Of a stretch of 34,960 nt of DNA, positions 18,011 to 23,340 are shown piece by piece. A model generated the notes under the pieces. It was given only the letters and a program-made list of their open reading frames with translations, did not search any database and was not told the origin of the DNA. Positions within the stretch are counted from its first letter, which is position 1. Every line of letters starts with the position of its first letter. The stretch lies in UHGV virus genome UHGV-0140617; one strand, given 5' to 3'. Made by a program: the position numbers and the translations under genes. The stretch is from a virus.

Positions 18011-18231
18011 GCGATCACCTTTGGTTCAAATGAGCGGACGTTGATAGGCTGATCGTATGGAAAAGACCAGTTAAGCCATGTGAAGGTTTTAAGTTCACAC
18101 ATCCCGTCGAACACCTCGCAAGGCTTAATATCGGTATAACTGCAGACGATATGTAATTCGTCACCCTTCGACTGCAAAACAACCGTGTCAGTTTCCCAAT
18201 GTGGAATGAGAAGAGCCAGCCACTTAATCAT
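18007..18231 (-). CDS. Hypothetical protein in lysis cassette
   Basis: 74 aa, ATGA-coupled to endolysin and to the downstream gene. Confidence 0.4.
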   Translation of the reverse strand: MIKWLALLIPHWETDTVVLQSKGDELHIVCSYTDIKPCEVFDGMCELKTFTWLNWSFPYDQPINVRSFEPKVIA

Positions 18232-18845
18232 GAAATCACCGATTTTGCTTTGGTGTAACGTGCACGGCGGTCGTTAATACCGTTTTGTCCACCATTGATG
18301 ATCTGAGTGATGCGAACCAGATCGCCGGAATAGCTCAGGCATCCGCTGGTGGCGTAGAACCATGCAGCTGAACGTGCAGCGTTGATGTCCTTTTCCAGCA
18401 ACTCAGGATTACTGACTAAATCCAGTTTTAATCCCGTTCCGCAGCGGCGGTAATTATCAAGGCCGGTAATCTGAATCAGCCCGCGTCCACGATATTTCCA
18501 CCCATCGCCTGATGCTTTGTTACCGAGGCGATTGCTGTACACCAGATTTGCAATGGCTGGTTGATTGGCTACCTGCCCTTTTTCTTTGTCACGCCCAAGC
18601 ATATAGGCCTGGTAGTTAGTAATTCGGCGTCCAAAGGTGGTCAGCAAAGCGGCTGGGGTGTAGTTGAAGCTCTCCACCAGCGCAGAGAATCCCGCTGATT
18701 CATGTCCTGACTGAGCAATAAACATTGCCTGGTCTTCAGGCTTAACAATGCCGAACTCTTTCATTGCCGCGTCAATGTGCGGAAACCAGCGTGCAGAAAG
18801 CCCGGCGCTGATACCAGCCGCCTGCTGAAATTGTGATTGGTTCAT
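18228..18845 (-). CDS. Endolysin, glycoside hydrolase family 19 (chitinase-like lysozyme)
   Basis: 205 aa with GH19-like motifs (AQSGHESAGF, GRGLIQITG); adjacent to holins. Confidence 0.8.
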   Translation of the reverse strand: MNQSQFQQAAGISAGLSARWFPHIDAAMKEFGIVKPEDQAMFIAQSGHESAGFSALVESFNYTPAALLTTFGRRITNYQAYMLGRDKEKGQVANQPAIANLVYSNRLGNKASGDGWKYRGRGLIQITGLDNYRRCGTGLKLDLVSNPELLEKDINAARSAAWFYATSGCLSYSGDLVRITQIINGGQNGINDRRARYTKAKSVIS

Positions 18846-19126
18846 TATTGCCTCAGATGATCAACCAGGCGTGCCACGTTGCCTCTGACGGCGACCAGCA
18901 CAGACAGGAAAATAATGTTGGCCCCGATAGTGGCCCACGATGAATAAGGGTAGATACCGCACAGATATGCCAGCGGAACCGCGCTATAGATGACCGTAAG
19001 CAGCCACGCCAGGCGAGATATCCATGGTCGATGTCGCGAATCGCCTCGACGATAAAACATCAGGGTCAGCACTACCCCAGCGCAAAGCAGCGCATTGATT
19101 GTTGCCGATGGGTCATTTAGTACCAC
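18845..19126 (-). CDS. Holin-like membrane protein
   Basis: 93 aa, multiple TM segments, immediately upstream of endolysin. Confidence 0.6.
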   Translation of the reverse strand: MVLNDPSATINALLCAGVVLTLMFYRRGDSRHRPWISRLAWLLTVIYSAVPLAYLCGIYPYSSWATIGANIIFLSVLVAVRGNVARLVDHLRQ

Positions 19127-19499
19127 CTGAACCTCCCCGGCGCGTTATCAGCGCCACCAGCGAGCCGACATCCTGATTATTCAGGAACGTCAGGATTTTG
19201 ACAGCTAAAGCAGAAACGATTACGGCACCGATAGCGTCCAGAGGCTTATCACTGTAACCAGTCCAGTCAGCCAGCTTTGAACCCACCAGCCCAGAGCAGA
19301 TTATCCCTGCGATGTAAGACACGACAAAATACGCCAGCCGACGTGCCGCGCTAAGGTCCGAAGCCGTTGCAATGTAAAATACAGCCCCGGCAAATGCGCC
19401 AAACACCACGCCATAATCGGTTCCGGAAACAAATCCATAGACACTGGCTCCCGTCAGGACACCACCAGCCAGCCCAGTACCGGAAATCGGATCGGACAT
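19113..19499 (-). CDS. Holin
   Basis: 128 aa, Gly/Ala-rich TM helices; first gene of the lysis cassette; SD AGAGGGGG. Confidence 0.65.
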   Translation of the reverse strand: MSDPISGTGLAGGVLTGASVYGFVSGTDYGVVFGAFAGAVFYIATASDLSAARRLAYFVVSYIAGIICSGLVGSKLADWTGYSDKPLDAIGAVIVSALAVKILTFLNNQDVGSLVALITRRGGSGGTK

Positions 19500-19546
19500 T
19501 AAGCCCCCTCTTAATTGCTGTGAGTCCTCTCAGAAATGAGGGGAAT

Positions 19547-19571
19547 AAAAAAACCCGTTCGAATGAACGGG
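19547..19571 (-). terminator. Strong intrinsic terminator immediately upstream of the holin (minus strand)
   Basis: cccgtt(19554-19559)/aacggg(19566-19571) 6-bp stem followed on the minus strand by UUUUUUU (plus A7 19547-19553). Confidence 0.7.
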
Positions 19572-20290
19572 CCAGAAAAGGAGAATTTTGCATTACTGAA
19601 GCGTTAACGCGATGCCGGGTGCCTCCCGGTGGGCCTTTGGCTGACAAACCATGACCCGTGAGCACTTTGCATGTCACTCCCTGACATTGTTTACTGTCAG
19701 TTTCACCCCTCCGCTTAGGGGGATTCATCACAACAACTTCAAACGAGAGCTTTTACTGAATGCTCTTTAACATTAGGACCGATAAAGAAAACCTGCAAAC
19801 AAATAGCCCAATGATTTCAAAAGAGTCAGGCTTCACGGGCTGGATTTATCAACAAAGCACGCAGTGAGTGATACCCGTGAGCCTGAAATGAAAAAGGCCA
19901 CGCAAAAGCGCGGCCCTAAGAAGATATATATATTTTGTTAATTCAGCGGAACATCTGGCATGGAGCGATCCAGTGAAGCGTTAATCAACGCCTTAATCGC
20001 GTTACACACCTGATAAAATCCGCCAGGCTGAGATAATAGCCATTATACGATGACCACAGATATGTTGCTCCTGGTAAGATCAGTATATATGCTTGAGTCA
20101 ACATAGTATGTGGAACATAAGTTGCTGTAACTGGACGATACATCGCGCAGATGAGATTAATCACGAATCAAATTTGACATTTGAATCATGACGGTTAAAT
20201 CCGCCTCCCGGGCGTGGCCTGCGGATGTGCGAAGTACTGTACAGAGAGATCGCGCGCCCCAGGTGCAACTAATTAATCATGGGAGAGTTT

Positions 20291-20636: not shown

Positions 20637-20825
20637 TTACTTTCTCAGCACTCCTTCATTCGGGCTGCTTGAAGTATAAGGTGTATAGTTATCAGGTGTA
20701 ATCATTGAAGATTTACAAAAAATACACTTTGCACCAAAGGGATTTTTCTCAGTCACATCAAAATGAGATGTTCTGTACTGTGACCCATGACAACAAGGGC
20801 ACTTAAAATAAATATGAGCAGTCAT
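20637..20825 (-). CDS. Small zinc-ribbon-like protein
   Basis: 62 aa with CPCC-H ... C-IF-C cysteine pairs; in the Q-to-lysis accessory region. Confidence 0.5.
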   Translation of the reverse strand: MTAHIYFKCPCCHGSQYRTSHFDVTEKNPFGAKCIFCKSSMITPDNYTPYTSSSPNEGVLRK

Positions 20826-21247
20826 GATATTAGCCTTTATATGCTACAACATTCACTACCGCAGTGATAACCAGAAGATATATTTTAACTAATAGTTCTT
20901 TTGGTTTTAGCATCAGATTGCAATTCACTTTAAAAGCAATAAAAATGAACATTTCTTATCTGCTTACATAGGGAATCTAAAATAATATAATTTCTTTATA
21001 TTATAACATCAGCGATTTTTGGGATGTTGTTAACTTTTACGAATGCACTTAAGCGTGCAAAAAAACTACAGAGGTAAACAGACAAATGACATTTATAAAA
21101 TAATCATTTCAACTGTTCTATCTAGTGATTAGACTCAGACATCTGTTCAGATCGGTTTGAGCAGATGTCGAGTTTCTGAAAAACCAATATATCTACTCAG
21201 GCTTTCACCGTCTTCGCTATCGTATATTGGCCTCAATCAGAAAAGTA

Positions 21248-21460
21248 TCAGGCAGCTACAACGTTTTCGGCTGACGGCCCTTTTGCACCAGCAGTGATGC
21301 TGAACTCAACTTTTTGGCCTTCATTCAGCGTTTTAAAACCACCACTCTGAATGGCAGAGAAGTGTACAAACACATCTTTACTACCGTTATCAGGGGTAAT
21401 AAAACCAAAACCTTTAGATTCATTAAACCATTTTACTAAACCAGTCATTTTATTAGACAC
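21248..21460 (-). CDS. Cold-shock protein, CspA family (prophage-borne paralog)
   Basis: 70 aa [38 protein letters not shown]... with RNP1/RNP2 motifs; ORF-track start is GTG (21458-21460), alternative ATG at 21446-21448. Confidence 0.9.
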
Positions 21461-21996
21461 AGGTATTTCCTTAAATTCTATGTAGCCTTACGGCGAAAAG
21501 GTTTTCGCACACAATCTAATTAGTAACGATAAGAAGGCTCAAAAGAAAGGATTATCTGTGGATAACGCTTGAGATGAGAACTGCTTTACTAAACCGCTTT
21601 AATGGGTCTGTGTACCTAACCAACCACTCATTAATCACACAACCCACAAACAATAGCAAGTTATTTTTTCATTAAATTGTTCGGAACATCTTAGAAATGG
21701 ATGCCGTGACAGCATAATCAGTGATTTTTCCCCTCGATAACATATGAGTGATCGCCTCTGTACGAGCAGAAACAGAATACATCAGTTTTATCAATCACCT
21801 ATAAAGAACATTCAACCACTCTGAAAAAATCCAGTAATGAGTTTTTTGTTCTATGCTTTCGTAGTCCATGGAATTGGTGGTAACAAAGGTAACCATTTCA
21901 TCCAACTCAAAAACAATATTTACAAAACTATGCTACTTTTATTTCATATATGTGTATTATTAGGTAAAGGAAATTAGAACTTTCAAAGGAGAAAAA

Positions 21997-22209
21997 ATGC
22001 AACGACAGAAAATGATATCGTCGAAAATAAAATTTGTTGGTTACTACCCATTAGAAAAAATCCTCGAGATAGGATTCGTTAACTCTTCAACCTTTCAGTA
22101 CGTTGGTGTCCCAGAAAGCATCTATAATTCTTTTCTAACAGTACAATCTAAAGGCCGTTTCTTTGATGGTGTTATTAAAGGTAAATTCTTGTGTCGTAAA
22201 ACCGGATGA
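21997..22209 (+). CDS. KTSC-domain-like small protein
   Basis: 70 aa; strong SD AAAGGAG; pattern VGY...L.I.F.N...Y.Y.GVP.S.Y......SKG.FF...IK recalled as KTSC-like; plus strand, opposite to late transcription. Confidence 0.5.
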   Translation: MQRQKMISSKIKFVGYYPLEKILEIGFVNSSTFQYVGVPESIYNSFLTVQSKGRFFDGVIKGKFLCRKTG

Positions 22210-22383
22210 TTCAAGAAAACTACTCTTACATATAGCCTGAAAGTCGTTTTTATTGCTTCCGGTTGTTGGTGTCCATTTGCGCAGGATGTTGATATCCCAC
22301 AGAACACTATTCCCATCAACTTCATATCCTTCATTAAAATGAATTTTTGCGATACGGGAACGCATACAATTTTCGAGTTCTTG

Positions 22384-22409
22384 GAAAACAAAACCCCGCC
22401 GAGGCAGGG
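22384..22409 (-). terminator. Terminator-like hairpin about 45-60 nt downstream of the putative late promoter
   Basis: Minus-sense CCCUGCC..GGCGGGG stem followed by UUUUGUUUUCC. Confidence 0.4.
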
Positions 22410-22453
22410 TTTTAATGATTAATATCGTACAGGCGCTATATCCCATAATCAAA

Positions 22454-22483
22454 AGCATACAGGACGGTTTTATGCAAAGTCAA
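22454..22483 (-). promoter_or_regulatory. Putative late promoter (pR'-like) just downstream of Q
   Basis: Minus-sense TTGACT (plus 22478-22483), 18-nt spacer, TATGCT (plus 22454-22459), about 45 nt after the Q stop. Confidence 0.4.
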
Positions 22484-22524
22484 CACCAACGTGCAAAAAA
22501 GAGTCGCCATTTGCTCCGATCGCA

Positions 22525-23340
22525 TCAATAAGTTGTTGCTTTCTCAAATTCTGATGATGCCTGACGCTCTCCCTTGTGCAGTGCATCAACCAACATTTCA
22601 TAGAATGGCTTCCAGTTACGAGACCATGAGGACTGATGGAGATCCGGCAGACGTTTAAGGATAGCCCGGTGAACGGTCGCAGATGACACTCTGGAATACC
22701 CCTCGCCGCTGCAACGCTCACACGTTTTGAAAACCGGTGCGCCGCGGTCTTTTGTCGCGATGCGGTCCAGTACCTCGCCCTTTCCACCACAACGGCAGCG
22801 GGCGCTGATTGTTCCCTTGCCTTCGCAACTATCACAGACGGCCGGTACAACCTCTGTTACCTCAGTCCAGTGCTCCCAGTCAGACGGACGAACGGCACGA
22901 GAGCGGTTAGCCCAATATGGTGCTTTACCCCATGGGTACGAAACCTTACGGGTGACCTGTTCGCGGGTTGTCCGTCCGGTACCATTGCAGCTGTGACACG
23001 TCACGCTGGTAGCCGCCGAACGAGAGTATTCAGCAAAGGCAAATTGCGCCAGCATCAGCATGCACCATCCCAACTCACCACCGGCTGCTTTGCGCACGTT
23101 CTTTGGTGCTGTCTCCATTGCGTGGCGTGCCAGCGCCTGAACCGCAAGTTGCTCATCGCTTTTGCTGATCCCGGTTTTACCAAAGAAAGCGGACAGACCA
23201 AAACGCGCGCGGCTGCTGGTCGTACCGATGGCTACCATAACATCGGTTCCGGTGAGGCGATCCGGAGAGGTGCCTTTCACGCTGTCGCTGATGTGCATCC
23301 CCTGAGGGCTGAAATGTTTGAGTGATGATTCCAACTTCAT
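22525..23340 (-). CDS. Q: Late-gene antiterminator Q-like protein
   Basis: 271 aa from ATG 23338-23340 (MKLESSLKHF...) with SD GAGGA; CxxC zinc-binding pairs (CHSCNGTG, CDSCEGKG, CERCSGEG); position between replication genes and the lysis region. The longer track ORF is an N-terminal over-extension. Confidence 0.75.
   Translation of the reverse strand: MKLESSLKHFSPQGMHISDSVKGTSPDRLTGTDVMVAIGTTSSRARFGLSAFFGKTGISKSDEQLAVQALARHAMETAPKNVRKAAGGELGWCMLMLAQFAFAEYSRSAATSVTCHSCNGTGRTTREQVTRKVSYPWGKAPYWANRSRAVRPSDWEHWTEVTEVVPAVCDSCEGKGTISARCRCGGKGEVLDRIATKDRGAPVFKTCERCSGEGYSRVSSATVHRAILKRLPDLHQSSWSRNWKPFYEMLVDALHKGERQASSEFEKATTY

Follow-up and report, generated by a model that had tools for sequence, protein, structure and literature searches.

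A probable lambda-type late regulatory cassette directly downstream of the Q gene of a lambdoid prophage

Results and Discussion

The element near 22.4 kb of the window (by which we mean the whole analysed stretch of 34,960 nucleotides from the viral genome UHGV-0140617) is very probably a homologue of the Q-pR'-qut-tR' system of lambda, acting as the late regulatory cassette of a lambdoid prophage. It lies on the minus strand, which is the late strand of the window, and the arrangement itself is a textbook one, an element of a well-known kind. An earlier, sequence-only reading of the same DNA had already suggested the logic of lambda pR'-qut-tR' for this site, and the suggestion is now supported by the homology of Q, by a module that travels with Q, by motifs that keep the register of lambda, and by a conserved terminator. 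Comparison among relatives shows a feature beyond what is expected by chance.

The Q protein and its gene

The gene upstream of the element occupies positions 22525 to 23340 of the minus strand and was recognized from its open reading frame together with Pfam and PDB matches; its start codon was placed at MKLESS, following the 816-nt Q genes annotated in relatives, which gives a protein of 271 residues of the lambda Q family. It matches PF03589 (Antiterm), the Pfam entry that represents the lambda Q family (PMC7171158), with E = 3.4e-54, and the lambda Q structure 7UBM with E = 1.8e-38. On these matches we take the protein to be a true lambda Q homologue, so that the earlier claim of a Q gene upstream of the element, on the same strand, is confirmed.

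The PDB alignment is split around an insertion of about 55 residues in the zinc-ribbon arm, which lambda Q does not have. This extra segment spans residues 126-179 approximately and carries additional CxxC motifs. Among the Q relatives the arm insertion occurs either in a long form (RKVSYPWGKAPYW...) or in a short form (VKHPGIFDADG...), and the two forms assort independently of the type of helix-turn-helix found in the same protein.

The promoter

The TTGACT-N18-TATGCT promoter described in the earlier reading is present at 22483-22454 of the minus strand, and the complete string reads TTGACT-TTGCATAAAACCGTCCTG-TATGCT-TTT-GATTAT-GGG. The -35 hexamer (22478..22483), identified by pattern scan and comparison, is followed by an 18-nt spacer (22460..22477) and by the -10 hexamer (22454..22459), identified by promoter scan. 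The spacer contains a putative Q-binding element, composed of a specificity subsite, TTGCATAAAA, at 22477-22468, and an invariant GTC at 22465-22463. As for the location of the promoter, the earlier estimate of some 45 nt past the Q stop was correct in its placement and slightly off in the distance: with the stop codon at 22527-22525, the gap to the -35 hexamer measures 41 nt. The gap in lambda, where the -35 hexamer is also TTGACT, is 42 nt.

Both hexamers are retained in all Q-anchored relatives, if one allows variants of the -10 hexamer (TATGAT, TATCAT, TAAGCT, TAAACT) in which TA...T is always kept; the -35 position is TTGACT or TTGATT in every module adjacent to Q. Within the spacer, positions 1-3, 8-9, 13-15 and 18 are invariant among the relatives of the module. 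Judged from the sequence, a sigma-70 promoter is found directly downstream of Q.

The exact string TTGACT-N18-TATGCT occurs once in the window, against an expectation of 0.01. Generic promoter-like sites, on the other hand, are not enriched between 19 and 25 kb (12 found, 8.9 expected), and for this reason the promoter hexamers alone carry little weight; it also counts against a late cassette that the promoter matches the consensus at only 9 of 12 positions, with a suboptimal spacer of 18 nt.

The pause-like element and the predicted start

A second -10-like hexamer, GATTAT, followed by GGG (22442..22450), is a putative sigma-dependent pause element and the counterpart of AACGAT-GGG in lambda. 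Its consensus in the clade of the window is nATyRT, with A2, T3 and T6 identical in all Q-anchored relatives and a G immediately after the hexamer in 73 of 79 sequences; it begins 3 nt after the -10. The geometry of the promoter predicts transcription to start at A22446, the 8th nucleotide after the -10, which is position 5 of the pause-like hexamer. This position is a purine in 79/79 sequences, and the predicted 5' hairpin of the transcript begins there. Counting from the hexamer, positions 16-17 (22434..22435) would be the pause site, a C-G: position 16 is a pyrimidine in 79/79 sequences (C in 77 of them), and position 17 is G in 71/79. RNA paused at this site would be about 12-13 nt long, compared with 16-17 nt for lambda.

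The lambda promoter can be written as TTGACT-tattgaataaaattggg-TAAATT-tgactc-A(+1)ACGATGGG; there AACGAT at +1 to +6 constitutes the sigma-dependent pause element, GGG is discriminator-like, and polymerase pauses at +16 (PMC4005639). Lambda and the window share the -10-like hexamer followed by GGG in gapless register, and C16-G17 counted from AACGAT in lambda matches the Y-G of the window clade at the same hexamer positions. The window also shares with lambda and with Klebsiella phage 5 LV-2017 a TTGnATAAAA motif that starts 27 nt ahead of the -10-like hexamer; in lambda and the window it falls between the two promoter hexamers. Furthermore, TTGCATAAAA of the window resembles TTGAATAAAA of lambda in the same register, which makes it a candidate Q-binding element by virtue of its sequence.

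The two systems differ in that the promoter spacer is 18 nt long in the window and 17 nt in lambda, and in that the distance from the -10 to the pause-like hexamer is 3 nt in the window, compared with 6 nt in lambda and in four other phages of the lambda family. Because the -10 lies 3 rather than 6 nt ahead of the hexamer, the predicted start falls inside the pause-like element, and the lambda model, in which sigma binds again within the transcribed region, does not transfer cleanly as a consequence. If the lambda register is functional in this clade, sigma would have to move by 9 bp instead of 12.

The predicted leader of the window is also considerably shorter than that of lambda, the 6S RNA (about 60 and 194 nt, respectively). 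The diversity of lambda-family Q proteins was sampled by a spread tblastn of phage records, as a locus search with lambda Q itself returned near-identical copies only. Klebsiella phage 5 LV-2017, Escherichia phage Lys8385Vzw, HK225 and Salmonella phage SPN3UB resemble the window in having a promoter directly after Q, a -10-like element with GGG, and a terminator 50-70 nt further on, which in the HK225 record is annotated as such. Since four further phages have a terminator at this distance, a short leader is usual in the lambda Q family. All four keep AACGATGGG of lambda at 6 nt from the -10, whereas in the window clade the distance is 3 nt and the sequence nATyRT-GG(G).

Co-variation of Q and the promoter spacer

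The relatives fall into a group A, to which the window belongs, with TTGACT-TTGCATAAAA, and a group B with TTGATT-TTGTCCGAA; the two groups have the module in common from spacer position 12 to its end. Spacer positions 4-7 are CATA or TCCG, following the helix-turn-helix type of the accompanying Q protein. When 28 Q proteins are aligned, groups A and B are told apart only by residues in the helix-turn-helix and in the C-terminal region; the corresponding sequences are ...LHQSSWSRNW... for group A, ...LHVRTWTRNW... for group B, and ...LTQPTWSRTV... for lambda. The pairing of a group-B Q with a group-B spacer is seen also in 3 loci where other DNA parts Q from the module. In the structure of lambda Q on DNA the helix-turn-helix reads positions 1-4 of the binding element and the zinc-ribbon arm reads positions 11-13 (PMC9388147). 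These contacts agree with a subsite that varies (spacer positions 4-7) and is followed, some 10 bp further downstream, by the invariant GTC at positions 13-15. We consider the co-variation supportive and not decisive, because linkage alone could yield part of the pattern.

The two groups also differ upstream of the promoter. The stretch between the Q stop and the -35 hexamer (GATCGGAGCAAATGGCGAC..TTTTTTGCACG, 22484..22524 of the minus strand, 41 nt) is 80-100% conserved per column among 59 group-A sequences, and is missing from group B, in which the gap measures 19-42 nt. In the group-A relatives its conservation equals or exceeds that of the end of the Q gene. The T-tract that it contains could serve as an UP-element, or the whole stretch could be the site of another regulator.

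Conservation of the module and its linkage to Q

In a blastn search of phage records, similarity to Q-bearing phages continues for 135-150 nt beyond the Q stop and ends just past the hairpin; the matches include Escherichia phages SaltyDalty and Fraca, Salmonella Fels-1, several Klebsiella prophages and Aeromonas phage AsXd-1. Overall the module is found with this type of Q in Enterobacter, Citrobacter, Klebsiella, Salmonella (Fels-1), E. coli and an Aeromonas phage. Relatives in genomes were collected by a protein-based search with one genome per species, which returned 22 full-length Q relatives of 63-89% identity. All 22 are accompanied by the module, which adjoins Q in 19 cases and lies 650-1350 bp downstream in the other 3. 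A scan of viral contigs with a core 15-mer of the module gave 80 loci, 43 of which contain the whole module, every one with Q directly upstream; the remaining 37 have no Q relative upstream and most of them are chance matches to the 15-mer.

The distribution of conservation along the locus was evaluated as the median identity to the window, segment by segment, of 24 Q-anchored relatives. Identity is 73% in the last 150 nt of Q, 76% from the -35 to +20, and 72% from +21 to the end of the terminator; it falls to 55% in the 100 nt after the terminator, compared with a random baseline of 54%. What follows the terminator varies among relatives and can be an antisense gene, tRNA genes, STnc100, or the holin gene. 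Only about 400 bp separate Q from holin in Klebsiella phage ST11-VIM1phi8.3, and there is therefore little room for another late promoter in that phage.

Three loci carry inserted DNA between Q and the promoter module (L007, 4831-5483; L020, 4798-6152; L021, 4798-6146). These inserts open with a terminator right after Q, and those of L020 and L021 contain a run of CCTGCA repeats about 20 nt apart.

The predicted leader RNA and its terminator

The predicted leader is about 60 nt long; it opens with a 5' stem-loop (+1 to +18), continues with a linker rich in A and U, and closes with the terminator. The stem-loop (22429..22446, minus strand) draws its support from pairing statistics over the aligned sequences: 81% of the cells are paired, as compared to 26-55% when the partners are slid, and none of 500 shuffles reaches the observed value. 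In two of the pairs both partners have changed; an A-C mismatch is present in one common variant, and the columns of the stem include the putative pause site. We regard the 5' stem-loop as tentative, with a moderate level of support.

The terminator, the analogue of tR', is at 22385..22414 of the minus strand and is composed of a stem (22414-22389) with a G+C core (22409-22394) and of a U-tract (22393-22385), which agrees with the hairpin and U-tract that the earlier reading had placed shortly after the promoter. The hairpin is stronger than was then thought: a stem of only 5 bp including a G-U pair had been described, whereas the core, CCCUGC/GCGGGG (22409-22404 with 22399-22394, loop CUCG), has 6 bp including one U-G, and can be extended to 11 bp by way of A-U and U-G pairs; UUUUGUUUU follows at 22393-22385. 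The hairpin lies 45 nt past the -10. The 63 nt from 22446 to 22384 fold with an energy of -19.5 kcal/mol (z = -2.3 with respect to shuffled sequences); the reverse (plus) strand of the terminator gives a weaker fold (-11.2 kcal/mol).

Of 79 unique module sequences, 74 have a hairpin 50-70 nt past the predicted start with a run of four or more T behind it. At least 8 distinct stem sequences occur, with pairing kept in each (for example CCCUGCC/GGCGGGG, ACCCGC/GCGGGU, ACCCGUC/GACGGGU, GCCCC/GGGGC and GCUCGC/GCGGGC). Stems that vary in sequence and keep their pairing are the pattern to be expected of a functional terminator, and not of a conserved coding or protein-binding sequence. Five loci (L010, L110, L136, L146, L150) have the promoter and the 5' part of the leader and no T-run terminator within the 73 nt of leader that were examined; in L110 a ribosome-binding site and an ATG are found about 110 nt past the start.

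The leader as a possible small RNA

A different interpretation is that the module is mainly an independent small-RNA gene, whose leader of about 60 nt is made in the lysogen and acts in trans, possibly binding Hfq, with the position after Q being secondary or with the RNA being a by-product that was put to use. We consider this possible and somewhat unlikely as the main explanation; it is in any case compatible with a Q cassette, since both can be true. Small RNAs that act by base pairing are typically built as the leader is, from a hairpin at the 5' end, a single-stranded linker rich in A and U, and a U-tailed terminator, and there is some compensatory change in the 5' hairpin. A precedent for such a use is StxS, the terminated pR' transcript of Stx2 phages, which is a functional small RNA (PMC7547250). 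Like StxS, the leader of the window would be a short RNA from the late promoter, terminated just downstream in lysogeny; for the window this is a prediction, and the likeness is one of architecture, with no sequence similarity established.

Conservation within the module is lowest in the linker, which argues against a conserved seed. With respect to Rfam, the leader has no family above threshold: the scores for STnc370, istR and RsmY are 24.7, 27.5 and 24.6 bits, against gathering thresholds of 54, 45 and 57 bits, respectively. At a permissive threshold STnc370 gives a weak full-length match exactly over the leader; its consensus maps beside glyS in the Salmonella core genome, outside any prophage, and we therefore attribute the match to architectural resemblance. 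The matches to istR and RsmY cover the terminator portion only. Two RNAs of E. coli EDL933 that are 72 nt long and highly expressed, ncR1085800 and ncR1481381, were also considered; the text searched in the paper that describes them makes no mention of prophage or antitermination in their connection.

The lysis genes and the STnc100 region

The first recognizable late genes are the lysis genes at 18228..19499 of the minus strand (two holin-family genes and an endolysin; Pfam Phage_holin_8, Phage_holin_3_7 and Glyco_hydro_19), which lie 2.9 kb downstream of the cassette on the same strand and are the presumed target of read-through. In the window, as in lambda, an intrinsic terminator precedes the late genes; unlike in lambda, about 2.9 kb of morons intervene between this terminator and the lysis genes, and further terminator-like sites are found on the minus strand of this interval (19917-19894 and 19573-19552). 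Past the lysis genes the minus strand carries a long series of ORFs, each of 80 residues or more, presumably the structural genes.

The interval also contains, directly ahead of holin, an STnc100 element that measures about 206 nt and ends in a strong terminator of its own (19542-19759, minus strand; RF02076, 76.8 bits), and one may ask whether the true late promoter and the site of Q loading are to be found there, near 19.6-19.8 kb, the hairpin at 22.4 kb merely ending the early-right operon after Q or the convergent KTSC-domain gene on the plus strand (21997-22209). The position of STnc100, the long leader of lambda itself, and the fact that the 22.4-kb hairpin folds on both strands, with the KTSC gene pointing at it, would be in keeping with this idea, which we nonetheless judge improbable. 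A scan of the minus strand from 19760 to 19840 gave no promoter-like site, and reading the same segment by eye revealed no lambda-like Q-binding or pause motif; the hairpin at 22.4 kb, in turn, is conserved with the Q module regardless of the gene that follows. STnc100, moreover, is not tied to Q: its copies number 1-3 and differ in position within the interval from Q to the lysis genes, it is not detected at the Rfam gathering score in two of the phages scanned, and it occurs also downstream of stx2 in Stx2 phages (PMC12370729). The late start near 19.6-19.8 kb that the earlier reading had named as an alternative is thus not borne out, the region being that of an STnc100 element with no Q-linked promoter.

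STnc100 has some likeness to the leader in being a structured, terminator-bearing RNA of prophages that is encoded on the late strand in the region from Q to the lysis genes. It differs from it in being a separate element 2.7 kb downstream, of variable copy number and position, and without a link to the type of Q. Promoter regions with RpoD and RpoN binding have been shown for several STnc100 copies in LT2 (PMC10794520). The element is better seen as one more terminated unit for the Q-modified polymerase to cross. Fels-1 has three copies between Q and holin, and STnc100 is found also after tRNA genes in an E. coli O157 prophage.

In a published ChIP-exo table for Salmonella LT2, the interval 974220-974339, which surrounds the Fels-1 site homologous to the cassette, contains no peak boundary of RpoD or RpoB; this is mild counter-evidence to a late promoter there. 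That the site is instead a sigma-54 promoter (TGG-N8-TTGCA, or GG-N10-GC, across the -35 region) is very hard to credit: TGGTGTTGACTTTGCA in the window does have the GG-N10-GC spacing, and a weak RpoN peak is listed over the homologous site of Fels-1 (L002; 974273-974309 of NC_003197.2, intensity 2.17, Table S1), but the upstream GG is not conserved (the family consensus is TTAGTG, and Fels-1 itself has GG-N8-GC), which makes such a promoter unlikely, while the peak is some 100 times below the strong RpoN sites of the same table and is centred on the -10 and not on the putative -24/-12 elements, and no enhancer-binding protein is evident nearby.

Gene calls and neighbouring genes

A minus-strand ORF at 22135-22458 starts at an ATG inside the -10 hexamer. 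We treated its N-terminal part as spurious, as it has no Pfam match and conservation stops at the terminator; when the ORF was taken from the internal ATG at 22365, tblastn of phage records returned no match. Deposited 'hypothetical protein' calls in two relatives (L001, 3163-3309; L003, 3163-3318) likewise start at an ATG within the -10 and span leader and terminator. These small calls across the cassette, that of the window included, are probably all spurious. In E. coli genomes no match was found to the segment 21600-22420.

The KTSC-domain gene points towards the leader terminator, which may act in both directions, the predicted fold of the plus strand being the weaker one. Between Q and the lysis genes there is also an inserted cold-shock protein gene with a full-length cspA thermoregulator 5' UTR (21176-21624, CDS 21248-21460, minus strand; RF01766, 200.9 bits), which has its own promoter-like site at 21580-21551 and is followed by a YmcF-like gene at 20637-20825.

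A model for the late switch

The cassette suggests the following sequence of events, in which start site, pause, Q binding and read-through are all inferred from sequence features. Host sigma-70 RNA polymerase would start at TTGACT-N18-TATGCT, probably at A22446. Without Q, polymerase would stop at the terminator some 60 nt downstream, and the short leader RNA would be released. Once Q has accumulated, its helix-turn-helix would bind the spacer element made up of TTGCATAAAA and of the GTC some 10 bp beyond it, while sigma would hold polymerase at the second -10-like hexamer, GATTAT-GGG. By joining the polymerase Q would bring about read-through of the leader terminator and of the later ones in the 2.9 kb of morons, and the modified polymerase could thereby reach holin, endolysin and the structural genes.

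A more far-reaching proposal, which we offer as a conjecture with less than even prospects, is that the window belongs to a compressed clade, in which the promoter has come 3 bp nearer to the frame of Q binding and pausing, transcription starts inside the pause element, and Q loads onto polymerase carrying an RNA of 12-13 nt after a 9-bp hop of sigma; the terminated leader (about 60 nt), in which the 5' hairpin is conserved, would in addition represent a widespread and uncatalogued family of prophage small RNAs made in lysogens.

Implications

The cassette fixes the point at which late transcription of this prophage most likely begins, and would explain how polymerase crosses about 2.9 kb of accessory genes and several terminators on its way to the lysis genes. 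It also defines an easily recognized, conserved cassette for a large uncharacterized branch of lambda-type Q proteins, a branch that includes Fels-1 and many prophages of Enterobacter, Klebsiella, Citrobacter and E. coli, one of them an E. coli O157 prophage, and over which annotation pipelines currently call small ORFs that are probably spurious. Finally, the way in which the Q helix-turn-helix and the spacer vary as a pair, and the shortened stretch between the -10 and the pause element, provide a natural test set for the way in which Q recognizes DNA and engages the paused polymerase.
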